DNA of 64,000 nucleotides from Promethearchaeota archaeon (lineage in GTDB: Archaea > Asgardarchaeota > Lokiarchaeia > Sigyniarchaeales > SOKP01): the NCBI GenBank assembly GCA_048941285.1, contig JBHLNS010000003.1, positions 32,001 through 96,000 on the forward strand. Reading direction: 5' to 3'. How positions within the stretch are numbered: the stretch's first letter is position 1; each line of letters begins with the position of its first letter. A model generated the notes under the pieces. The model saw only the letters and a program-made list of their open reading frames with translations, had not been told where the DNA came from and ran no database searches. The position numbers were made by a program, and so were the translations under genes. Positions 6,617 to 43,728 of this stretch are shown piece by piece.

Positions 6617-9600
6617 CTAGAATCCCTCTGCACTTCTATACAAAAGATCCGGATAAATTTTTTCAAATTTTTTTGTAAAAATTTTGTGATTCATCCAAAT
6701 CTTGTCCTTATTATTCCATTTAAGATTAATTAGTGGATTATAAGTATCTAAAAATTTTAGACTCCCATAAATTTCTTTTAAGAGATTCATACCATTAACT
6801 AAATCTGTTAAAATAATGTAATATTTGATTTCTAAATACTCAAATAATAAGTTAAATAATTTAAGGAATTCATCAAGCTCGCATTGAGGAAAATATAACT
6901 TAATCATTAAACCGTTTTCAAATTTAATTTCTTTATTAAATCCGTAGATATAAAATTCTCCTGCTATTTCATAAATAAATCCATAATTGAAAAAGTTAAA
7001 AATATTTATAATCGTTTGATTCAATCCTGCTTTCACATTAGGTAAAATTATATAGATTTTATCTTGAAAACCTAAATTCTTTATTGAAATGTAAGGAAAT
7101 ATTAAGTTCTTTTTAAGCAACTCAGAAAAATTTTTGACCATTAAATATTTCTGCGTTCCTAAAAATGACTTTATATCCAATGATTTCCATGAATAAATTT
7201 CAGTTAATGCTTGAAAATAAAAAGAGTAGGGGTTAAATTGATCTGGTATTGATGAAGGGTCAATATTAAATTGATTTAATTTAATCGATTCACGTTGATA
7301 AAGCTGATTAAAAAGTATATTTTGCATATATATTTTAAAATGATTTGAATCATAATTCCAGCCATTAGGCTTTAGGTTGTGATTAAAATTGAGAATTTGA
7401 TAAACACGCTTAATGAAAAATAGGCAATATTCTTTAATTATACGTTTAGTTTTTGTATACCAATTAAGATGTTTCATATTAGGATTACCATGAGGGAAAA
7501 TATATTTAATTAAAAAAGAGTTTGTATGATCAATATTAGTAGGATATTTAATGGATTGAAAAGTATTGATTAGGAGATGTTTAAAATCTATTTCGTCTAC
7601 ATTAGAAGGGTGTATATACAAAAAGAATTGATTTAATTTAAATGCTTGAAAGTTCGGAATAAATTTAATAGATTTAATATAAGTTTTAAAAAAAGGAGCT
7701 TGTTTTAAATCCTTAAACTTTTCTGTGTTAAGAAGACTCACTGTGAGATTTTCATTGAGGGTTCTCAACTCATTTAATCTATTTAGATTGAAATCTGGTT
7801 GCTCATATGAAATACGATTATCTACGGCTTTTATTAGATTGAAAATATTACTTTCTTTTGACCAAAATTTATCTTGAGACGTAAATTTTAGTACTGGCAA
7901 TGATTCAAATGATTCTCCTAAAAGATTTTGTATATAAAGAAAAATTTGTTCAAATAAATCTCTAGTATAGAAAAACTCGCCTTTATCAAAATCATAAAAA
8001 TCTTTAATTAACACAAAAGGTACTAGACCACTTGTAAAATATCTTTTAAAACTGATAAGATCTTTATTAAAAATATTATAAAGAATCGAGGTTAGCATTT
8101 CCTTTTCTTTAATATTCAGAAAATATATAAATAGAATAATATAGGAATCGTTGTTGAAAGAATTTCGTACTCTATCTAATAATACTCTCGGAAAAAATCT
8201 AATGATTTTTTCTAATTGGATATTTACATTAAGTGTATCTTTCAATAGCAGAATTGGATGATATTTAGCAAAAGTACTTGTAATTATTGTCTTAATTAAT
8301 CCGGGTATAATTAAATCTGTTTCAATAAATCTTTTAAATATGGAATCTAGTTTTTGATTTGTGATTTTATATGGCTTAAATTTCTCAAAAGATGCCTTTA
8401 GTTTCTTTTCCTTTGTGTAATAAATTTTTTCTGGAAATTCTTCATTATTAACAATTTCTTTCATTGAATCAAGGTTAAAAATCTTAAGTTTCTTACAAGA
8501 ACTAAAGAAATTAAAAAAATAGTAATATTTCTGTTTTAATACTGTAAATTTTTCAAAATTTCTAAAATAATGGTGAAAAAAATCTCGAAATACTATTTTT
8601 TGAATATCTTTATTTTTGAGATATAAATTCTCTTCAATCGATTGAGATATTTTGTGTCTTTTCATAAATTCTTGTAATTTATTTAAGTTATTAATTTCAG
8701 GATATTGTCTAATTACATTTTCAATTAAATCCAAATATACTAATGTTTGTTGGAGCGTATCCTCTATATAAAAAAATCCAAACTTTTGATTAGTTTCCAA
8801 AAAATCTAATAATTCCTTTCTTAATTTTGGATCTTCATAGAATATATTAAGAGAAGATTTTAAGTTTGAAATTAATAATCTCTCACTTTCAATATAATTT
8901 AACAACTCATCTTTAATAGATTGAAGTGTTTCTACTCTCTGTTCAAATCCGAAACCTGTGAGGCTGGTTTGCCTAGCCCTTTCAAAAATAACCCAATCCA
9001 GCAGATTTAATCTAATCAATCTTTGAGGTTTACCATAATAGCTAGTAAATTTAAGTTCAAGACGATTATCATAATCTTTATGATTTGGATTTATGATCTT
9101 ATTTAGTCCTTTTAGGTATTCTCTAAAATAATTCAAATTTATAAAGTTGTTATACTCTAACCAAATATAACAATCCGTATTGGTAATGTATCCATGCATT
9201 TTTAATTTTTCAATTAATTTCTCCAAGTCTTTTAGATAAATTCTAGGTATTACAACTAAATTAAATACTTCTGTTGAAAAGCCGTTTCTTACAAAAACAG
9301 GATTATGCAAAAATGGGATTTTATCTATGATATTAGAAATATCATTTTGATTTAGAATAGGGTGGAACTTTAGAATCGAGATTAACAAAGCAATATCTAG
9401 TTTGTGAAAATCTACATGAAATGATGGAGAAATTATTGTATACTTGTTAATCCAACGCAGATTTTCACTAAATTTTCTTTTGCTTAAATCAGTGGAAAAA
9501 AGTCCTTCTTCTTTAAACTTTTGAAAATAATCTTCAAATTCGATGTATTTTTTAAATAATTTTACTTGATCAAAAATTTTAATAAGAATTCTAATAGTCT

Positions 9601-10231
9601 CTACAATTTCATCATTATAAAGAGATTTTGAAGTTTTGTAGATAAATTCTTCATAAAGAATATCATAAAAATCATCCATCTTATCATGAATTAAGGAGAT
9701 ATTTCTATAAATAAACTCAAAAAAGAATTGTGTTGGACTTTGGGTATTTTCTGTTGCTTCAAGTTTAAAAAATTTATTCATCTTATCAAATTGAGCTGAT
9801 AAAAACTCATAATTGATAATATTACTTCGAACTAATGTTTTCCATTCATCTATCACCTCCAATTTAAAAAGATCACTTTCTATTATTTCATGAATAACAA
9901 TTTGGATAATCTCTCTTTCTCTTAATTCATATGGGATAAAATTCAAGTAAGCCTCTCTGAGGAGGATAAATTCCAAAAATTTCAAATATTTATCTGAAAT
10001 ATCAATCTGAGTTTGATTATTTAGCAGTGTTCTACTTACACCAAGATTAAAGAAATCCTCTGAATATTCTTTTTGATCAATAGAAATATTAATTGTGACA
10101 TTTGGATTAATTGGAGCTAATCCTAAATAATTTTGAATTTCACTTAATAGGATAATGAATATATTGTTAATATCCTTAACTAAGAGGTCTTTTGGAGTAG
10201 TAATCAAAATATCTAAATTCAGAGTTTTCAT
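6617..10231 (-). CDS. Large hypothetical protein (1204 aa), possibly tandem Lrp/AsnC-like modules
   Basis: Long uninterrupted ORF with recurring segments resembling the Lrp wHTH-to-RAM junction (TIISPSFHVDFHKLD; YIKSIKFIPNFQAFKL; KNLIFPYISIKNLG). Confidence 0.6.
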   Translation of the reverse strand: MKTLNLDILITTPKDLLVKDINNIFIILLSEIQNYLGLAPINPNVTINISIDQKEYSEDFFNLGVSRTLLNNQTQIDISDKYLKFLEFILLREAYLNFIPYELREREIIQIVIHEIIESDLFKLEVIDEWKTLVRSNIINYEFLSAQFDKMNKFFKLEATENTQSPTQFFFEFIYRNISLIHDKMDDFYDILYEEFIYKTSKSLYNDEIVETIRILIKIFDQVKLFKKYIEFEDYFQKFKEEGLFSTDLSKRKFSENLRWINKYTIISPSFHVDFHKLDIALLISILKFHPILNQNDISNIIDKIPFLHNPVFVRNGFSTEVFNLVVIPRIYLKDLEKLIEKLKMHGYITNTDCYIWLEYNNFINLNYFREYLKGLNKIINPNHKDYDNRLELKFTSYYGKPQRLIRLNLLDWVIFERARQTSLTGFGFEQRVETLQSIKDELLNYIESERLLISNLKSSLNIFYEDPKLRKELLDFLETNQKFGFFYIEDTLQQTLVYLDLIENVIRQYPEINNLNKLQEFMKRHKISQSIEENLYLKNKDIQKIVFRDFFHHYFRNFEKFTVLKQKYYYFFNFFSSCKKLKIFNLDSMKEIVNNEEFPEKIYYTKEKKLKASFEKFKPYKITNQKLDSIFKRFIETDLIIPGLIKTIITSTFAKYHPILLLKDTLNVNIQLEKIIRFFPRVLLDRVRNSFNNDSYIILFIYFLNIKEKEMLTSILYNIFNKDLISFKRYFTSGLVPFVLIKDFYDFDKGEFFYTRDLFEQIFLYIQNLLGESFESLPVLKFTSQDKFWSKESNIFNLIKAVDNRISYEQPDFNLNRLNELRTLNENLTVSLLNTEKFKDLKQAPFFKTYIKSIKFIPNFQAFKLNQFFLYIHPSNVDEIDFKHLLINTFQSIKYPTNIDHTNSFLIKYIFPHGNPNMKHLNWYTKTKRIIKEYCLFFIKRVYQILNFNHNLKPNGWNYDSNHFKIYMQNILFNQLYQRESIKLNQFNIDPSSIPDQFNPYSFYFQALTEIYSWKSLDIKSFLGTQKYLMVKNFSELLKKNLIFPYISIKNLGFQDKIYIILPNVKAGLNQTIINIFNFFNYGFIYEIAGEFYIYGFNKEIKFENGLMIKLYFPQCELDEFLKLFNLLFEYLEIKYYIILTDLVNGMNLLKEIYGSLKFLDTYNPLINLKWNNKDKIWMNHKIFTKKFEKIYPDLLYRSAEGF

Positions 10232-10549
10232 AAGAATCCTATTATTTTTACCCCTTTTAATAATCTTTAAGTGAAAATAAATAAATACAATTCAATTCTT
10301 AATCCTCGTTAAAATATTACCCATAAAATATTTAAAAGTTTAGCATATTTAAAAGAATTTTTAATAAGAAGATCTTGATAATCCATTATTTTAATCAAAA
10401 AATAATGTCGGGAGAGTGCAGATAATTAGGTTTAATAAATTAATAAATTGTTAACATATTGTTTTTAATAAGTGAAATTCTTTAATTTAATTTAGGATTT
10501 ATATTAACTATAATAGTAAGATTTGGTAAATTAAAAGAGAGTATTAAAA

Positions 10550-34840: not shown

Positions 34841-35797
34841 ATGAACGAATCAAGAGATTATAAAAAAATACTATTTTGTGGTTTAGAAAATGGTGGAAAA
34901 ACATCAATTTTATTAATATTAGATAAAAAATTTAGTTTACTAACTACTGTTAAACCGACTATAAAAGCAAGAAGAACTATCCACACAAACTCATTATTAG
35001 GCACCACTATTGTCCGGTGGGATTTAGGTGGTCAAAAAGTTTATAGAAAAATATATTTAGGGGATAAGAGTAGGTATTTCACAGAAATGCAATCAATTTT
35101 TTACGTTATTGATATCCAAGCACCTAAAAAATTTGAAGAAGCTATAAATTTTCTTAAAGATATAGTAAACATCACCTCAGATTCGCGCCCCGATAATTTT
35201 CAACTTTTAATTTTACTTCATAAATATGATCCAGACATTAAAAACAATAGTAATATTATAACTAACGTAAAATTTTTAGAAAATGAGATTTCATCAATTA
35301 TTAAAAACATTAAATATTCTATATTGAAAACCTCGATATATGATGAACCAAGTCTGTTAAAGGCTTTTTCTGATGGTGTTTTTTATGCCACTCACAAATC
35401 TGAAATGTTCCAAACTTTATTAAAAGATTACATGGGCAAAACTTATAATAGCTCTACGCTATTATTGGATCAGAATTGTTTTATTATTGCTAGTAGAAGT
35501 ACAAATCAAGCTTATCAAGAAATATGTGAGTCTATAGCGCCAAGGTTAACTCAAGCATTAGAAAAACTAGAAGAATGGGATATAAATACAATAGATATTG
35601 TAACAAACATAGAATTTCCAGAAAAACATTCAGAATTTCAAAAAGAAGGCATTATTTTTCTTAGAAAATTAGATATTGGAGAAACTCGACTATACTTGGT
35701 CGCACTTTGCTTAAATAAGAAGGTCAAAATTAAATCCTATGAATATTTGCCATTATTAGCAGAAAATTTAAAAAATCTTTTAGAGAGTTTTGGTTAA
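34841..35797 (+). CDS. Rag/Gtr-like small GTPase with C-terminal roadblock/longin-like domain
   Basis: G1 GLENGGKTS, G2 PT, G3 WDLGGQ, G4 HKYD, G5 TSIYD, then a C-terminal domain of about 130 aa (STLLLDQNCFIIAS). Confidence 0.82.
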   Translation: MNESRDYKKILFCGLENGGKTSILLILDKKFSLLTTVKPTIKARRTIHTNSLLGTTIVRWDLGGQKVYRKIYLGDKSRYFTEMQSIFYVIDIQAPKKFEEAINFLKDIVNITSDSRPDNFQLLILLHKYDPDIKNNSNIITNVKFLENEISSIIKNIKYSILKTSIYDEPSLLKAFSDGVFYATHKSEMFQTLLKDYMGKTYNSSTLLLDQNCFIIASRSTNQAYQEICESIAPRLTQALEKLEEWDINTIDIVTNIEFPEKHSEFQKEGIIFLRKLDIGETRLYLVALCLNKKVKIKSYEYLPLLAENLKNLLESFG

Positions 35798-36014: not shown

Positions 36015-37208
36015 ATGATTATAAAGTCCAATGTAAACAAAAATTATATAGGCCCTAAAGCACTCTTTGACCCAAATTATGTACCACCTCGCTTATTGTA
36101 CAGAAAAAAAGAGGAGAACTCCTTACATTCAATTTTAAATGATTCAATTTCTGACCAATTTTCACTTAACATTCTTTATCACGGAATGAATGGGATAGGT
36201 AAAAAAGTAATAGTGAACAAAGTTATAAACGATCTTTTAATAGAAAAAGGAGATTGTTTAAAAATCAATAAAATTAGTGTAGATTGTAAAGAAAAAGAAA
36301 TTGATGACTTACTTTTATCATTATTAAATGAATTAACAAACTGTTCTGATGTTAATTTCAATTATCAAACTATTTTAAATTCAAGTCTTTCACATTTATG
36401 GAATACCTTTAAGTTCATTTGTAATAAACTTGATTCTCATCTATTTTTTATATTTAATAATGTTGAATATTTAGATCCTGAAATATTTCAAAAATTCTTA
36501 CTTTTCAGTAAAGAAACAAATATTACTTTAATTTCTACAATAAATAAATTTTTAAAACCAGGTTATATGGACTTACTTTCTGAATTTGATTTTAAGCATA
36601 AATTAAACTTCTTCTCATACCACGAGCTTTATTCTATTCTTAAACAACGAGTTCTTTTAAGTTTTTCAAATGAAATTGATAAAGACTTAATTAGATATAT
36701 AACAGATTTAATATGCGAAGAATATGCCCCTGTTCCAGGAAAAGGCATTGAAATTCTTCGAGATATATATCCAATTATAAAAAATAATAAAGAATACCGG
36801 AATTTTGAATTATTAGAAATTTGTCAAAATGAGTTTGACTCATTTCAAATCTCTGATGAATTTAGCTTAATAAATTATCTTTCGGAAGAGGATATGCTTA
36901 CTGTGATATTCTTAGATAATCTTTCTAATCATTTTATGCATAAGATGAATTATTATATTTCATTTAATAAATTAAGGGAATCCTATGAACTTTCATGCGA
37001 AACATTAGAATATAAAAAAGATATTAATGAGTTTTACTGCCTAATTGAAGAGTTGTTAAATATGGGTATTATTAAACCCTCAAAAAGAACAAAATCCAAA
37101 AATAATGTTAATAACGGTTTTAATAATAGAAATTGTGATTTTTTCTTTACAATAATAAACCCAAAACAGATAAAGGTTATAATTGATACAATTTTTAACC
37201 AATATTAA
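36015..37208 (+). CDS. Orc1/Cdc6-family protein with degenerate ATPase motifs
   Basis: FDPNYVPPRLLYR..E N-terminus, GMNGIGKK Walker A, FIFNNVE Walker B, ELYSILKQR and a C-terminal wHTH. Confidence 0.78.
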   Translation: MIIKSNVNKNYIGPKALFDPNYVPPRLLYRKKEENSLHSILNDSISDQFSLNILYHGMNGIGKKVIVNKVINDLLIEKGDCLKINKISVDCKEKEIDDLLLSLLNELTNCSDVNFNYQTILNSSLSHLWNTFKFICNKLDSHLFFIFNNVEYLDPEIFQKFLLFSKETNITLISTINKFLKPGYMDLLSEFDFKHKLNFFSYHELYSILKQRVLLSFSNEIDKDLIRYITDLICEEYAPVPGKGIEILRDIYPIIKNNKEYRNFELLEICQNEFDSFQISDEFSLINYLSEEDMLTVIFLDNLSNHFMHKMNYYISFNKLRESYELSCETLEYKKDINEFYCLIEELLNMGIIKPSKRTKSKNNVNNGFNNRNCDFFFTIINPKQIKVIIDTIFNQY

Positions 37209-37377: not shown

Positions 37378-40300
37378 TTGACTTACATTAAAAAAATTTC
37401 CATGAGTGGTTTTAAGAGTTTTGGAGATAGAACTGTAACAATTCGACTTTCAAGTGGATTTACATGCATCGTCGGCCCAAATGGGGCAGGTAAGTCTAAT
37501 ATTATTGATGCTCTTTGTTTTGCATTAGGCCGGTTAAGCAAAAAAACAATGAGAGCGAAAAGTCTTGAGGACCTGATTTTCGCAGGATCCAGAGGAAAAA
37601 ATCCCTCTCAAAGAGCATCTGTTACGTTATATTTTGATAATTCTGAGAACGTATTTCCAGGAGGCACAAGTGATTTTGAGATTACACGAACGATTAAGAT
37701 AGGAGGCGGTGGTGGTTATAAAATGAATGGAAAAAAGGCTACGCGCCAACAAATTCTTAACGCTTTAGCGGCAGCTAATATTGATCCAGATGGGAGCAAT
37801 CAATTTGTCCTTCAAGGAAAAATTGTAGAATTAACTCATATGAATGCAGAAGAACGTAGAAAATTTATTGAAGAATTAATTGGACTTCAAAAATATGACG
37901 AAATGAAAGATGCTACCTTAAAAGAACTAGAAAAAGCAGAAAGAGATTTAGGACAATTTGAAGCGATCTTTAAGGAAGTTTCTGCTCAGTTAAAAAAAGT
38001 TGAAAAGGAGAAAAATGATGCTTTGGCTTGGAAAGAATTAGATGAGCAAATTAATTTTTTAAATTCTCAATTAATTGCATTAAAAATTTCAATATTACGA
38101 CAAGAAGAAGAAGATCTGGAAAGAAAAATCGAAAATTCTTTAAAAATTATTGAAGAATTGCAAGAAAAGATTAATAGACAGGAAGATGTCTTAAAACAAG
38201 AATCACTTGTTATGGATAATATTCAGAAAACAATTTCAGAGAAAGAAAAAGAGAGAGAGGAGATTGCAGAAAATATCACTCAAATAAAAACTCAGATTTC
38301 ATCAAGTGAGACTACTCTTAATTTAGCGCAAAAATCAATTGAAAAATTAGTAAATGAAATTGAAACTTTAGAAAGTAAACAAATGAAACTTGAGGAAGGT
38401 CAAACCTTTGATTCATTAATTGAAAACGTTTCAAATGAAATCTTAGAATATGAGAATCATATCGAAGAAACTAAGAAAGAAATTGAAAAACGGCAGCAAA
38501 ACCAAGCTGAATTAGAACTTCAAATTAAAAATACTGAGGATGAAAATTCTCTTTTTAAAGCCGATATTTCCAAAATACAACAAAATGTTTCGTCTAATAA
38601 TGCTCAGGTCAAGATGCTCAAAGGAACTATAAAAAAAAATGAAGAAAAGAAACAAAAATTAGAAGTTGAGTTAGAGAAATTGAAAAGGGATGCAGAAAGT
38701 ATTGATGAAGCCATCGAAGCCGCCAAAAAGGAAGAAGCAGATATTAGAACTCGTATTAATGATTTAAATACTAAAATCTCAAAAGAAAACCAAAATCAAA
38801 AAGACTTAGAGAACGATATAAGTAGTCTTCAAGCAGACAAGAATCAATTAAATTCAAAATTAACAGATTTTCAAGCTTCTTTATCCTCTTTAAACACAGA
38901 AATTAAAATGAATCAAGGGACTATCCAAGAACTAAATGAAAAGAAAATTTCTATCAAGAAGAAAATTACTGATTTAAGCAAAGGTAGAGATGCTGAAAAG
39001 GCTGTAAAAGAATTACTAAAAGATAATGAGGGAATTAATAAAGATTTAAGTGAATTAAAAGCGAAATTGAAGCAAGAAAACTCAAACTATAGAAAAAATG
39101 AGCACGATTTAGAATTAATGAATATGAAGAAATATTCATTCGAATCAGAAATCAATGATAACAATGCAAAGATTGATAATATCAATACTGAACTAAAAAT
39201 TCTTTCAAAAGAATTAAAAAAATTGGATCGAGAAAAAAATAATATAGAATTGCAAGTTGACTCTTTAAGTAAAACGCTCTCAACGACAACAAGTGAATCC
39301 GAAAAATCTCAATTAAAAAAAGAAAATATTCAAAGAAGATTACAGGATCTTTCTGAAGAAAGAGAAAATTTAGTTAAGAAAATCGAGATTTCTGAAGAAG
39401 AATATGATAAGAATACAAAAGATATCACAGGAATTCTCCAAATTTTAAATATGCTCACTCAAAATATTAACATTTCGGTAGAGTCGATTAAAAGTAATAT
39501 CCAACAGTCAAATGCAGAAGCTATTGAATCCTCCGCAGAAGATTTCAAAAAATTTATTCTAGATATAATTGATATTATGAAATCAGTTGAGGATATTGGT
39601 ACAGATGAAGAAAAACCCACTGAAATGACCAGTATGCTTAGTTCTATCATGCAAACTCTAAAATTATTTACAGATAATGCCGATGATACAATTAATCAAC
39701 TAATTGAAAGAGTCAAAGAGTCTGCTGACGTTGAAGTTCAATCGTCAACAAATACATTTGATAATTTTGTTCAAGACTTAATGGAAATTCTTGAAAATGT
39801 ATATCTCTCCTTAAGGAAATTGACTATGTCTAAAAGTCAAGAATTATATAAACAATTAGAAGAGATTTCAGCAAGCATTAAATCTCAAACAGATGAATTC
39901 AATAAAAATGAACAACTATTAACTGAAACCAGAATTCAAGAGAAGCATTTTTCTGAAAATCTTTCATCCCATAATAAAAGACTTGAAGAAATTAATAAAA
40001 GAAATACTGAATTAAATCAAAGAATTAAAAAAGCAGAAGACGAAATAAATGAAAGAAGGGATATTATTAATAATCGGCAATTAGAAGTCAATAACTTGGA
40101 TTCCGAGATTAGCAAATTAAAAGAACTTAAGGATACTTTTTGGGATAACATATCTAAAATCCAAGATGATATTGATAGAAAGCAAAAGGACTTAGAAATT
40201 TTAAGAGAAAAGCTTCAAGAATTACATGGTATTCAGAATTTATTTGATAATATCGTAGAAATTGATGCTAATATAGAAAAATTAAATAGTTTTATTGAAG

Positions 40301-41829
40301 AAAAGAAAAACATAATATTAAACACTGAAGAGAGCATTAAAAATATTCAAGTTGATCAAAATTCAATCCAAAATAGCATAAATGAACATCTTATTAAAAA
40401 AGAAAAATTTTGGGGAATAACTGAGAATTTACGAAAACAGATAGATGTTGAAAATAAAAGCCTTGAAGAAACTATGGATCGTCTAAGAGCACTTGAAAAT
40501 GTGATGAGGATAATCACATCTATTGAAGATATTAAAAAAGAGAATATAGATGCAACTAATCGAATTAAAACTTGTCAAGATGATATAGAAAATCTTAATT
40601 CCCAAGTTCAAGAAATTCAAAAAAATGTGGATCAAAAACAGCTGGTTATAAACTCCTTAAGAGATGAAAAATCTCAAGAATTAGAATCCCAAAAAGCAGC
40701 TCAGAAAAAATTAAATAAACTGAATAAAGATTTACAGAGATCTCAAGGTAAACTAAATGAATTAAATAAAAACAAGGAGAGAGAACAAAAGATTCTTGGG
40801 TTGAATCAGGATATAAAAGACACTGAAGAACAAATTGAATCAATAACAAAAGAGTTAGAAGTTTTTAAAGAAGATTTAACTAATGAAAATTTGAAGAAAG
40901 ATGAAAAACAAAAAGAGATTGATAAGTTTGTACAAGAAAAGGATGAATCATGGAAAAAGCAAAAACAATATCAGAAAGTTATAACTGATTTAAAATCTGA
41001 TCTCTCCATGGAAAATTCAAAAATAAACAATTATGAATCTAAAAAGATTATGTGTACTGACCAGATAGAAACCTTATTTCAACGTTCTAAAGAATATGGC
41101 TCATTACCACCTGTAACTGGTGATCTTGTTGAAGCAGAATTGCAATCAGATATCGTAGAATTAACAAAAAAAAAGAAGGCTCTTGAACCAGTGAATTTAA
41201 AAGCAATTCAACAATATGACGCAGTTAAAGAAAGATTTGATGAGATAGATATGAGGCGTCAAACAATTCAAAGAGAAAGAAAGTCGATTCTTGATGCAAT
41301 AGATAAAATTGAATTAGAAAAAACTCGAACTTTTATGAAAGCTTATCATGAGATTAATAGGGAATTCTCAAGGATTTTTCAAAAGTTATCTCCAGGAGGT
41401 TCTGCAAAGATGATTTTAGATAGACCAGACAAACCTTTTGAGGGAGGCATTTCTATCGAAGCAAGACCCAGAGGTAAAAAAATTAGCTCACTAGAAATTT
41501 TAAGTGGTGGCGAAAAAACATTAGTTGCGTTATCTTTCATTTTTGCGGTTCAAGAATTTTATCCTGCTCCATTTTATGTGATGGATGAAATCGACGCTGC
41601 TTTAGATGGCCCAAATGTACACCGTGTTTCAATGGTTATTAAGGAATTTGCTTCACAAGCTCAATTTATGGTGATTAGCCATCGTGAGGAAAATATAGTA
41701 AACGCAGATAGAATTTATGGTGTTTCAATGCAACAAAGTGGAATCACTGATATTTTTAGCGTTGACTTAGAAGAAGAAGCTAAGAGACTCCTTGAACTTG
41801 AAGATATAGAACCAACAATTACAGAATAA
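37378..41829 (+). CDS. smc: SMC chromosome segregation protein, extra-long, without a canonical hinge
   Basis: GFKSF, GPNGAGKSN, Q-loop VLQG, PVNLKAI, LSGGEK, MDEIDAALD and ISH; followed by scpA and scpB. Confidence 0.95.
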   Translation: MTYIKKISMSGFKSFGDRTVTIRLSSGFTCIVGPNGAGKSNIIDALCFALGRLSKKTMRAKSLEDLIFAGSRGKNPSQRASVTLYFDNSENVFPGGTSDFEITRTIKIGGGGGYKMNGKKATRQQILNALAAANIDPDGSNQFVLQGKIVELTHMNAEERRKFIEELIGLQKYDEMKDATLKELEKAERDLGQFEAIFKEVSAQLKKVEKEKNDALAWKELDEQINFLNSQLIALKISILRQEEEDLERKIENSLKIIEELQEKINRQEDVLKQESLVMDNIQKTISEKEKEREEIAENITQIKTQISSSETTLNLAQKSIEKLVNEIETLESKQMKLEEGQTFDSLIENVSNEILEYENHIEETKKEIEKRQQNQAELELQIKNTEDENSLFKADISKIQQNVSSNNAQVKMLKGTIKKNEEKKQKLEVELEKLKRDAESIDEAIEAAKKEEADIRTRINDLNTKISKENQNQKDLENDISSLQADKNQLNSKLTDFQASLSSLNTEIKMNQGTIQELNEKKISIKKKITDLSKGRDAEKAVKELLKDNEGINKDLSELKAKLKQENSNYRKNEHDLELMNMKKYSFESEINDNNAKIDNINTELKILSKELKKLDREKNNIELQVDSLSKTLSTTTSESEKSQLKKENIQRRLQDLSEERENLVKKIEISEEEYDKNTKDITGILQILNMLTQNINISVESIKSNIQQSNAEAIESSAEDFKKFILDIIDIMKSVEDIGTDEEKPTEMTSMLSSIMQTLKLFTDNADDTINQLIERVKESADVEVQSSTNTFDNFVQDLMEILENVYLSLRKLTMSKSQELYKQLEEISASIKSQTDEFNKNEQLLTETRIQEKHFSENLSSHNKRLEEINKRNTELNQRIKKAEDEINERRDIINNRQLEVNNLDSEISKLKELKDTFWDNISKIQDDIDRKQKDLEILREKLQELHGIQNLFDNIVEIDANIEKLNSFIEEKKNIILNTEESIKNIQVDQNSIQNSINEHLIKKEKFWGITENLRKQIDVENKSLEETMDRLRALENVMRIITSIEDIKKENIDATNRIKTCQDDIENLNSQVQEIQKNVDQKQLVINSLRDEKSQELESQKAAQKKLNKLNKDLQRSQGKLNELNKNKEREQKILGLNQDIKDTEEQIESITKELEVFKEDLTNENLKKDEKQKEIDKFVQEKDESWKKQKQYQKVITDLKSDLSMENSKINNYESKKIMCTDQIETLFQRSKEYGSLPPVTGDLVEAELQSDIVELTKKKKALEPVNLKAIQQYDAVKERFDEIDMRRQTIQRERKSILDAIDKIELEKTRTFMKAYHEINREFSRIFQKLSPGGSAKMILDRPDKPFEGGISIEARPRGKKISSLEILSGGEKTLVALSFIFAVQEFYPAPFYVMDEIDAALDGPNVHRVSMVIKEFASQAQFMVISHREENIVNADRIYGVSMQQSGITDIFSVDLEEEAKRLLELEDIEPTITE

Positions 41830-41857: not shown

Positions 41858-42859
41858 ATTTCAGAAAAAGAAATAGATTCTACTAAAGAATATAATTTTA
41901 AAGAATGGACTGTTAAAGATCTCAGAGAATTTGCTTCGAAAAATAATATAAAAATACCTATCAAGTCTAAGAAAATAGAAATAATTGACTTACTCCAAAA
42001 GGTTGTGTCACATCCCGAGTTTATCGATAGATCTCAAGAAGTTAAAGAATTAGAAGAAGAGCTTGTTGCTGGATTTGATGATGAGGAAGATCTTGCATTA
42101 TTGAGAAAAGAAAAACTTGAATTGAAATTCTGGCAAAAGCCACCGTTTTCTAGTTTATTAGACTCGGAAATTGCAAAAGAATCTGAAATTGCTTTTTATG
42201 ATTTAGCAAAATTAGTTGATGAATTTTTTGATCAAATGCTCCACGAAGAATTAATAAATTATAAAATTTCTGGAATTGCGCTTAAAACTTCAGCAACTTT
42301 ACATCATTATAAAATATCTAGCATAATTAGAGAGGAAGAACAAATTCAAAAAAGAGAAGAATTAGAGAAATTCAGACAAGCACACAGTAGGACTATTCCA
42401 AAAGCATTGCCTCAACCAATTCAGCCAAAAATGCAAATAGCTACAAAAGATGAATTGTTTGATGCGATGAGATCTGCTATTATAGAAGTAATGCAGAATA
42501 AAGAAAAATTAAGAAGGAGACGCATGAGAAAAGAAGAACTAAAACAACACAGAATTCAATTGAAATCTAAAGCACAACTCCCTAAAGAACTTTTAAAACA
42601 CATAAGTGGAAGAGAACAAACGATAGAAGAATTGCATGATTCATGGTTTAATCGAATTAAAGCTACTATTAATCTAAATAATAAAGAAACTACTTTTTAT
42701 GAGTTAGCAAATATTATAAAAAGTGAGGAAAAAAGCGATATTGGGCGGAAATTTTCTTTTGTCCGTATGTTTTTAGCATTAATGTTCCTTTCTACAGGGA
42801 ATAAGTTAACTTTATCTCAAGATGAAGATTTTCAAGATTTTAATGTCAATATTAGATAA
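41858..42859 (+). CDS. scpA: Kleisin ScpA with an inferred 49-aa N-terminal extension (ATT start; ORF track starts at GTG 42005)
   Basis: Lies between smc and scpB; has ISGIAL..SA.L..YK and a C-terminal FLALMFL...L.L.Q.EDF winged helix. GGTGA is 6 nt before the in-frame ATT at 41858. Confidence 0.85.
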   Translation: MSEKEIDSTKEYNFKEWTVKDLREFASKNNIKIPIKSKKIEIIDLLQKVVSHPEFIDRSQEVKELEEELVAGFDDEEDLALLRKEKLELKFWQKPPFSSLLDSEIAKESEIAFYDLAKLVDEFFDQMLHEELINYKISGIALKTSATLHHYKISSIIREEEQIQKREELEKFRQAHSRTIPKALPQPIQPKMQIATKDELFDAMRSAIIEVMQNKEKLRRRRMRKEELKQHRIQLKSKAQLPKELLKHISGREQTIEELHDSWFNRIKATINLNNKETTFYELANIIKSEEKSDIGRKFSFVRMFLALMFLSTGNKLTLSQDEDFQDFNVNIR

Positions 42860-42900: not shown

Positions 42901-43728
42901 TTGGAAGAAAATAATGAAAATGATATTAAAGAAAATTCAGAAGAAGACTTAGAAAAATTAGAAGAAATCGACTTAACTGAAGATTTAAGTTTAGAATCAG
43001 AAAATCTATTGACAGAAGATTTTGAGGAAGATCAAGATATTGGAAATGATTTACAAACCGATCTTGATGATAATTCCTCCGAGACAACTATTCTTGATGA
43101 GGAATCATTAAAGAACCAAGTAAGGATTTTCCATCGAAATTTGATTGAAGCTTCTTTGTATGCTGCTGGAAGTCCATTAACTATTGAAGAAATCTCAACA
43201 AAATTGGAAATTCCTAAGAAAGAAGTGGAAGAATTAGTAAATGAAGTAGCTTTTGATTACTTAGACCGCACTACTGCTCTTGTCATTGCACAAATTGGAG
43301 AAAGATATCAAATGCAAATTAAACCAGAATATACAGAAAAAGTTTCTAAATTTGCTAAAGGAGGAGCAATAGCAGAAAGGTATTTGAGAACTTTAACGAT
43401 TATCGCTTTGAAACAACCAGTCTTAAAATCAATGGTTATTAAATTGAGAGGTACTGGAGCATATGAACATATAAAGTATCTTATAGATAATGGTTTTGTA
43501 AATGCTGTAAAAAAAGGAAGATCCCATGAATTAACTACCACCGATAAGTACGCAGATATGTTTGGGCTACCAAAAGATAAAACTGAATTGAAACGTGCTA
43601 TGGTCACACAATTAGGAATTGAAGAAATATCAAGTAGTGAAACTCCAGACGATAATGAATTTTCTGATGATTCAGAACCCTTTAGCGAAACTGAATCAAT
43701 AAATGAAGATGAAGAAGGAGAAGAATAA
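42901..43728 (+). CDS. scpB: KITE subunit ScpB with acidic tails
   Basis: IEASLYAAG.PL, LRTL.IIA.KQP, I.LRG, GR....TT..Y..MFGL. Confidence 0.93.
   Translation: MEENNENDIKENSEEDLEKLEEIDLTEDLSLESENLLTEDFEEDQDIGNDLQTDLDDNSSETTILDEESLKNQVRIFHRNLIEASLYAAGSPLTIEEISTKLEIPKKEVEELVNEVAFDYLDRTTALVIAQIGERYQMQIKPEYTEKVSKFAKGGAIAERYLRTLTIIALKQPVLKSMVIKLRGTGAYEHIKYLIDNGFVNAVKKGRSHELTTTDKYADMFGLPKDKTELKRAMVTQLGIEEISSSETPDDNEFSDDSEPFSETESINEDEEGEE

Follow-up and report, generated by a model that had tools for sequence, protein, structure and literature searches.

A hinge-free condensin-type SMC protein with a predicted helical-hairpin apex in an order of Loki-type Asgard archaea

Can a condensin-type SMC protein exist in nature without a hinge, and if so, what stands at the far end of its arms? 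This question is raised by a gene in a 64,000-nucleotide stretch of DNA from a Promethearchaeota archaeon (contig JBHLNS010000003.1 of assembly GCA_048941285.1, positions 32,001 to 96,000), hereafter the window. An open reading frame (ORF) at 37378..41829 on the plus strand, the strand of all features of the window given below, begins with TTG and encodes an SMC protein of 1483 residues. The hinge is regarded as a defining and mechanistically important part of an SMC protein, being its dimer interface, a proposed DNA gate and a DNA-binding site. A preliminary description, made from the sequence of the window, held that this protein has intact head motifs but neither a hinge nor a zinc hook, that its apex at 39400-39850 (residues 675-825) is a duplicated helical hairpin, and that scpA and scpB follow. 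We find that the hinge is absent and that about 485 helical residues stand in its place.

At its two ends, the protein carries an ABC-type SMC head with all five motifs present in the translation, in line with the intact head motifs of the preliminary description. The N-terminal half (residues 1-170; 37378..37887) contains the Walker A motif GPNGAGKS (33-40) and the Q-loop residue Q146, and the C-terminal half (residues 1291-1483; 41248..41829) contains the signature LSGGEK (1375-1380), the Walker B motif FYVMDE (1399-1404) and the H-loop residue H1435; across 101 family members, the identity of the two halves is 82-99% and 84-98%, respectively. The Pfam family SMC_N matches residues 3-1457 with 141 bits. 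The score against the NCBIfam model TIGR02168, 608.8 bits, exceeds the cut-off of 567.35; that against TIGR02169, 632.2 bits in five stretches, falls short of the cut-off of 729.4. Between the heads runs a long intramolecular antiparallel coiled-coil arm, judging from heptad periodicity at residues 171-674 and 822-1199, an AlphaFold2 hairpin over residues 600-900 and collinearity with canonical arms. The assignment to the condensin type also stands: besides the SMC model scores of 609-632 bits, ScpB and probable kleisin genes adjoin the SMC gene, and the tree position of the protein is among the condensin-type Smc heads (both below).

The same comparisons bear on whether the protein might be of the Rad50 type, of the type of the archaea-specific SMC-related proteins (ASRP) or of the SMC5/6 type, or the product of a decaying gene. 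In NCBIfam, the ASRP model (152 bits) and the Rad50 model (105 bits) are matched as well, but these secondary matches are weak, arise through the common head fold, and compare with the SMC model scores just given. The apex CxxC zinc hook of Rad50, SbcC and the ASRP is absent, with no cysteine between positions 48 and 1065. Going by published descriptions, an archaeal SMC5/6-related protein would cluster with the Asgard SMCs of ~1120-1155 residues and have non-ScpB kites; the tree of the heads only (100/100) places the long SMCs inside the condensin-type clade and away from these shorter, weak-hinge proteins, and the neighbour is ScpB. No MukB, MksB or JetC family is found among the NCBIfam and Pfam matches, the partner again being ScpB, and in Foldseek only arm fragments match. 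As for decay, the ORF is intact and the long SMC occurs in 78 of the 91 genomes of the order. We consider a protein of the Rad50, ASRP or SMC5/6 type, or a decaying gene, exceedingly improbable.

Is the hinge really missing? Neither CxxC nor the hinge motif GX6GX3GG occurs anywhere in the protein, whose four cysteines lie at positions 30, 47, 1066 and 1226 and whose sole proline between positions 138 and 1243 is P747. The Pfam family SMC_hinge (PF06470) matched neither the whole protein (threshold E<=1) nor the isolated 220-residue apex (threshold E<=10), which is what the preliminary description had expected of such a scan, and its report of no hinge motif and no hook agrees with the motif scan of the whole protein as well as with Pfam, hhalign and hidden Markov model (HMM) comparisons. 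Among the 165 families matched by 25 members of the long-SMC family, SMC_hinge is outside the 25 most frequent. A profile of the hinge region built from 15 canonical Asgard Smc proteins (A2), the consensus of which contains GDxxExSGLMxGG, was aligned by hhalign to the apex profile of the long SMCs (A1) with a probability of 3.2%, the aligned part being the flanking coiled coil only. An HMM of the same 15 canonical Asgard Smc proteins at full length matched nine long SMCs strongly and collinearly at HMM positions ~1-490 and 680-1184, showing that the long SMCs keep the head and the two canonical arms; positions 520-680 had no match in 9/9. On the window's own SMC, the strong collinear stretches are narrower, at residues 2-340 and 1016-1469. 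The place of the canonical hinge of ~190 residues is occupied by a helical insert of ~485 residues, with approximate bounds at residues 486-970 (38833..40287), which consists of heptad arm extensions and an apex module.

One may ask whether a strongly diverged alpha/beta hinge is present and escapes sequence methods, an outcome that the preliminary description had itself named as one that would overturn its reading. This possibility draws solely on the limited sensitivity of HMMs, and nothing was found for it. Two AlphaFold2 runs gave continuous helices with no strand, the hhalign probability against the hinge profile is as low as stated above, glycine and proline are nearly absent from the region, and its hydrophobic periodicity is regular throughout. 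We regard a hidden hinge as very improbable: by Pfam, hhalign, HMM mapping, AlphaFold2 and composition, the protein has no globular alpha/beta hinge with a Gly-rich dimer interface.

The arms of the long SMC measure ~570 and ~540 residues, which is ~1.6-1.7 times the canonical length (arm segments of ~320-340 in the canonical HMM). The middle ~485 residues match the arm parts of the canonical HMM weakly and repeatedly, with 14-44 bits. An origin of the extension by arm duplication was considered and not adopted, because generic coiled-coil similarity explains such matches equally well.

The apex module comprises residues 670-830 (39385..39867) and is conserved, acidic and hendecad-periodic. 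Within it, repeat 1 (residues 679-737; 39412..39588) and repeat 2 (residues 750-808; 39625..39801) flank a turn, TDEEKPT (residues 742-748; 39601..39621), which follows G741, holds the only proline of the arms and falls in variable columns of A1. An ungapped Smith-Waterman alignment of the two repeats scores 82 over 58 residues, compared with 30.4 +/- 5.7 for shuffled sequences, of which 0/1000 reach 82; the best score of either apex half against arm windows is 53-57. The family profiles of the two halves are aligned by hhalign over 58 columns with a probability of 97.7% (E 1.3e-12), compared with 0.1-0.2% for apex halves against arm pieces of the same alignment (n = 4) and 46% for one arm piece against another. 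The apex is, to judge from its sequence, a tandem duplication of one helix of ~60-70 residues. The two similar segments around a short turn that the preliminary description quoted are indeed all present, and their similarity goes beyond that of shuffles.

AlphaFold2 was run on residues 600-900 with a 25-sequence alignment (28-88% identity), giving a mean predicted local distance difference test (pLDDT) score of 82.7, helices at 601-741 and 749-899 and a loop at 742-748. A second run, on residues 670-830 with a different alignment that included four members of a second protein family (below), gave helices at 671-741 and 747-829 with a best pLDDT of 73.4. By DSSP, neither apex model contains a beta strand. 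The segments NAEAIESS and ADVEVQSS, putative loops inside the repeats, are helical in the models; hence each repeat forms one strand of the hairpin, N-terminal for repeat 1 and C-terminal for repeat 2, and the repeats pair with each other. The apex is thus predicted to be a single two-strand helical hairpin. Of the "duplicated helical hairpin" of the preliminary description, the duplication and the all-helical nature hold, whereas the hairpin is single, with a single turn at 742-748. An arrangement of one helix-loop-helix per repeat, making a four-helix bundle within one chain, was rejected, since both models give one hairpin.

A Foldseek search of the PDB with the apex model found as its best match a chemoreceptor cytoplasmic hairpin (2ch7; E 2.9e-4, TM 0.55), followed by arm fragments of B. 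subtilis Smc, the MukB elbow and Smc5/6 arms. Like the predicted tip, 2ch7 is a long antiparallel two-helix hairpin; unlike it, 2ch7 belongs to an unrelated context, and the two are not related in sequence (14-16% identity, no Pfam match), so that the analogy is one of mechanism only. Membership of the chemoreceptor signalling domain (MCPsignal) was rejected: no Pfam match was found at E<=10, and the match to the PDB profile of 2ch7 (E 0.12) lies in the arm part, a likeness of shape only. Against Pfam, NCBIfam and PDB sequence profiles, the apex matched only generic coiled coils (ATG17, ATG16, tropomyosin, apolipoprotein, spectrin and designed coiled coils).

Conservation and periodicity set the tip apart from the arms. 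Across 101 full-length members, identity to the window's SMC is 95% at residues 691-720 and 82-86% at 781-840, compared with 82-99% in the heads, 46-75% in most arm blocks and 66-71% in the turn region 721-780. The tip would appear to be a functional element, not a passive loop. The module contains 14 Lys and Arg and 33 Asp and Glu residues, a net charge of -19. Hydrophobic periodicity was scanned over residues 171-1283 in 51 windows of 63 residues; the apex shows a period of 3.63-3.69 (hendecad-like) and most arm windows one of 3.39-3.57 (heptad-like). A best period of 3.6-3.7 was found in 5/51 windows, four in the apex (675-737, 738-800, 759-821 and 780-842) and one near the head (213-275), and within 675-737 the power rises from 0.01 at a period of 3.5 to 1.51 at 3.67. 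Other exceptions occur at 192-254 (3.84), 696-758 (3.30), 717-779 (3.48, inside the tip) and 1200-1283 (3.12-3.18). These periods point to a packing regime in the tip that is distinct from that of the arms.

How widely is this SMC distributed, and is it the Smc of its lineage with the hinge exchanged, as the preliminary description implied? A search for the apex in 301 Asgard genomes found it in 60/68 genomes of the window's family (f1), in 7/7 of the sister family (f2) and in 3/225 others. Matches in G193 and G205 were not accepted as real occurrences: the former lies on an 8.6-kb contig (C70; L046) and encodes a protein almost the same as its counterparts in two genomes of the sister family, and the latter lie on short contigs (C234, C256 and C278) of a 72%-complete bin, with 79-86% identity to the window's SMC. 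Both are probably mis-binned contigs rather than cases of gene transfer. A match in G221 (E 7e-4) was not counted. Within the order, the 78 genomes with a match to the module profile include 60/71 of f1, 14/14 of f2, 1/1 of f31 and 2/4 of f32. The f32 matches (G302:C112:6502-6966 and G303:C41:1935-2399) are weaker (E 1e-29 to 6e-30) and lie in open frames of 1307-1349 residues, which may encode a shorter-armed hinge-less SMC variant.

Among the 301 genomes, most other Asgard families have a canonical Smc of ~1190-1230 residues with a strong PF06470 match (E 1e-29 to 1e-39). Such a strong match occurs in 9/68 genomes of f1 (genera g3, g6, g8 and g9), in 4/7 of f2 and in 0/21 of the window's genus, of which 19/21 genomes have a weak match only (E 1e-7 to 2e-5). 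The long SMC thus coexists with the canonical, hinged Smc of ~1200 residues in 9/68 and 4/7 genomes of the two families, and it is a paralogue rather than an ordinary Smc with a swapped hinge. Genomes G210 and G144 hold both types, each SMC with its own ScpB directly downstream; the ScpB beside the long SMC scores 116-120 bits and that beside the canonical Smc 63-70 bits. A search of the window's genome with the canonical Smc of G144 matched only the heads of the long gene, with 41% and 32% identity. A canonical Smc was not found in this genome, which is 94% complete, for which reason we say "not found"; the count of 0/21 in the genus supports this. The long SMC is the only condensin-type SMC found in the window's genome.

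The only PF06470 match in that genome (30 bits) belongs to a different SMC of 1153 residues on another contig (C24 of G000; L010:5754-9215, plus strand; SMC_N 58 bits). The two ORFs that follow it, at 9227-9883 (218 residues) and 9890-10405 (171 residues), match no Pfam family. Labelled by published descriptions, this locus is probably the archaeal SMC5/6-related operon of the literature. PF06470 is also missing or weak in other Asgard families (f16, 0/11; f22, 0/7; f24, 17/21, all listed at E >= 7e-5; f7, 5/28), and these tallies hint at further hinge-divergent or Smc-less lineages.

Trees were built from 27 Asgard sequences, by a quick method on all well-filled columns and by a careful method on the heads only (349 columns), under LG+G4 only, with compositional heterogeneity flagged and with Asgard sequences as the whole sample. 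Nine long SMCs are monophyletic in both trees (100; 100/100) with a long stem (0.99; 0.52 changes per column), and their clade lies inside the condensin-type clade in both, the three shorter weak-hinge SMCs that form the outgroup being split off at 100/100. Neither tree resolves the sister group of the long clade. The view that the long SMC is a remodelled orthologue was rejected, given its coexistence with canonical Smc-ScpB and its monophyly. The long SMC is a lineage-specific, monophyletic paralogue confined to one order.

The partner genes are those of a condensin-type complex, the ScpB clearly and the kleisin with weak matches at both of its ends, in the right order. Downstream of the SMC gene, a protein of 275 residues (42901..43728) is an ScpB kite (PF04079, 9e-34; TIGR00281, 96 bits, above the cut-off) that is extended at both termini by acidic segments; the window's genome has no second PF04079 match, and no other ScpB was found in it. 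Between the two genes, a protein of 284 residues (42005..42859) is a probable divergent, ScpA-like kleisin. Of the earlier claim that scpA and scpB follow, scpB is clear and scpA only weakly recognisable, with a Pfam SMC_ScpA match of E 0.064 at the C-terminus; NCBIfam gave no match to it. A profile from an alignment of nine kleisin orthologues, taken from the same position beside long SMCs (A4), matches the ScpA N-domain 6ivh (E 0.0017) and the C-terminal winged-helix chains of ScpA/Scc1 (E 0.3-0.7), and individual members match SMC_ScpA (2/9) or Rad21_Rec8 (3/9). In 7/9 orthologues (L041 and L046-L051), the kleisin has an N-terminal tail of 40-130 residues rich in Lys, Ser and Thr; the kleisin of G144 has a Cys/His motif in place of the tail, and that of the window has neither. 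ScpB and the probable kleisin stand downstream of the long SMC in 9/9 aligned loci.

What, then, might the tip do? On balance, we think it probable that the long SMC belongs to a lineage-specific condensin-type SMC-kleisin-ScpB complex in which the hinge has been replaced by a helical dimerising tip. Repeat 1 would run up, the chain would reverse at the Gly/Pro turn 742-748, and repeat 2 would run down against repeat 1, the first half of each repeat lying against the second half of the other. Because the repeats would pair in antiparallel fashion, the hairpin may mimic an antiparallel homodimer of the ancestral unit. Chemoreceptor cytoplasmic hairpins dimerise into four-helix bundles; by analogy, two tips lying side by side could form such a bundle and provide the far-end contact in the hinge's stead, while closure at the head end would fall to the kleisin and ScpB. 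On DNA, such a complex would act like Smc-ScpAB, as a ring or rod of ~1.6-1.7 times the usual length, and the window's genus would have no other condensin-type complex left. Dimerisation at the tip is plausible since a published report describes as functional an Smc of B. subtilis that carries the zinc hook of Rad50 in the hinge's place (PMC5344682). A two-copy complex prediction of residues 640-860 with A1 scored 0.00, a run without controls that speaks neither for nor against dimerisation.

Several points weigh against this proposal. The absence of the hinge, the predicted helical hairpin, its duplication, conservation and periodicity, the paralogy and the distribution are demonstrated; a function on DNA and dimerisation at the tip are what we infer. 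The AlphaFold2 models are of moderate confidence: in the first run, the local pLDDT is 70-78 over the tip and drops to 56 in the loop, and in the second, the other four of the five models score 48-65. The match to 2ch7 seems to say little more than "long helical hairpin", and the kleisin assignment draws on weak matches. Acidic tips would repel each other unless their charges were buried, paired or bridged by cations, and so acidic a tip cannot take over the DNA binding that is ascribed to hinges. Furthermore, a plain hairpin would be stable without a partner, in which case the conservation could equally mark a docking site.

This last point leads to a rival explanation, which we consider possible yet unlikely, in which the tip does not dimerise and offers, on a lone hairpin, a conserved acidic surface for docking. 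This tip would bind a basic partner, e.g., histones or the Lys-rich tail found on most orthologous kleisins, or fold back onto the head module. The SMC chains would be joined either along their arms or, through the kleisin and ATP, only at their heads. The hairpin is self-sufficient in both AlphaFold2 models, the net charge of the module is strongly negative, 7/9 orthologous kleisins have the long tails described above, the conserved polar residues suit a binding surface, and the same module is N-terminal in a non-SMC protein with a K/T-rich tail at its other end. However, the window's kleisin has no basic tail and the second module family was not found in its genome, so that a universal partner would have to be something else. 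In addition, to our knowledge, a far-end dimer contact is present in every characterised SMC, Rad50 and MukB.

The non-SMC protein was found through the module itself. When 1.84 billion representative proteins were searched with a module profile (A3), only 42 matched at E<=1e-3. They show two architectures, one of ~1464-1497 residues in which the module spans ~670-830 and one of ~920-1180 residues in which it spans ~60-220, the rest being fragments and a few weak matches. In genome G210, residues 17-219 of a protein of 1041 residues (L043, 6997..10122) match residues 641-831 of the same genome's long SMC (BLASTP 2e-13, 23% identity). Eight columns are invariant in both module families (L693, I697, D729, T760, N767, S790, D795 and L812), with an overall identity of 22-29%. 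Because it also heads this unrelated family of ~1000 residues, the 160-residue module is a discrete domain. The second-family loci, encoding ~925-1120 residues, are L043:6997-10122 (minus strand), L052:6103-9321, L053:3678-6755 and L054:3912-6692, and the proteins consist of the N-terminal 160-residue module, a beta-rich middle and a C-terminal K/T-rich (H1-like) tail. A protein-atlas search with the middle of the 1041-residue protein reached 0.88 at best, short of the 0.9 mark, and its DUF11/CARDB-like matches are a lead only. Some members have a weaker second internal copy of the module. Three of the four loci are preceded by a conserved ORF of ~470 residues with a Cys-rich N-terminus and by a JAB/MPN protease of ~330-360 residues (Pfam JAB, 18-25 bits in 3/3).

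Since both families share the module, with its eight invariant columns, and occur together in sister-family genomes, the tip of the SMC could pair heterotypically with the homologous module of the ~1000-residue protein, which would tether the SMC. However, among the 91 genomes of the order, the second family occurs in the sister family only, and 0/71 genomes of the window's family have more than one module match. In the window's genome, the second family was not found and the module occurs once; heterotypic pairing therefore cannot be the general mechanism, and we judge it quite improbable.

Returning to the dimerising tip that we favour, we compare the long SMC with known systems. It shares with Smc-ScpAB (TIGR02168/TIGR02169; PF02463 and PF06470), including the Asgard Smc of ~1200 residues, the head motifs and sequence, the collinear head, N-arm and C-arm, and an adjoining ScpB and probable kleisin; it differs in that it lacks the hinge, has ~485 helical residues with a duplicated hendecad tip, has arms ~1.6-1.7 times as long and sits on a long stem as a paralogue. 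In the B. subtilis protein Smc(Zh), the hinge was exchanged for the Pyrococcus Rad50 zinc hook, and the protein is described as functional (PMC5344682). Like the long SMC, Smc(Zh) has a small apex based on a helical hairpin in the hinge's place; unlike it, Smc(Zh) is artificial, dimerises through Zn and Cys and has near-normal arms, whereas the long SMC is natural, has no Cys at its tip and has much longer arms. Rad50/SbcC and the ASRP (ClsN and Sph), the latter described as having zinc hooks (PMC9389158), likewise have an SMC-superfamily head, an arm ending in a helical hairpin and no globular hinge, but they dimerise through the CxxC zinc hook and belong to other head families with other partners.

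Hinge loss as such is already in print, since a "hinge-less" SMC clade near Actinobacteria has been reported from ocean metagenomes (PMC12153180). As far as the available text of that report goes, its members resemble the long SMC in their SMC-type heads, antiparallel coiled coil and lack of a hinge and a CxxC hook; in contrast, they are bacterial-affiliated, and that text mentions no duplicated tip, long arms or ScpAB context. For Asgard archaea, two and in some cases three SMC complexes have been described, and all SMC proteins are said to dimerise via hinges; the words "Loki" and "hingeless" are absent from the main text of that description (bioRxiv 10.1101/2024.01.07.573240). Full-text searches of the literature brought up no account of a Lokiarchaeal SMC that lacks a hinge, although supplements may list such sequences.

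The ORF directly upstream of the SMC gene (36015-37208; 397 residues) has weak AAA_22, NB-ARC and Cdc6_C matches (E 0.004-0.04) and may encode a degenerate Orc1/Cdc6-like ATPase; this neighbour is not kept at the long-SMC loci of G210, G089 and G144. A Rag/Gtr-type GTPase is encoded at 34841-35797 (Gtr1_RagA, 4.7e-23).

The locus thus holds a natural hinge-free condensin-type SMC complex, in an order of Loki-type Asgard archaea, with a tip whose function we infer. Because the hinge is replaced while the heads and partner genes are normal, the long SMC is a natural test of what the hinge is for. Since most of its genera yielded no canonical Smc alongside it, the contribution of the hinge, the effect of arm length and the use of a helical tip as a substitute are directly testable. 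The complex adds a third type to the two described for Asgard archaea and bears on the reconstructed SMC repertoire of the archaeal ancestor of eukaryotes. As a tentative extension, which we hold with less than even confidence, the module may be a new autonomous helical association domain that closes the SMC ring or pairs two ~85-nm arms without a hinge or metal hook, in a hinge-free, extra-long, loop-extruding or DNA-entrapping machine that would have functionally displaced canonical Smc-ScpAB in most genera; the acidic tip may also dock basic chromatin proteins. If this were true, the DNA-binding and gate roles proposed for the hinge would be dispensable in nature.

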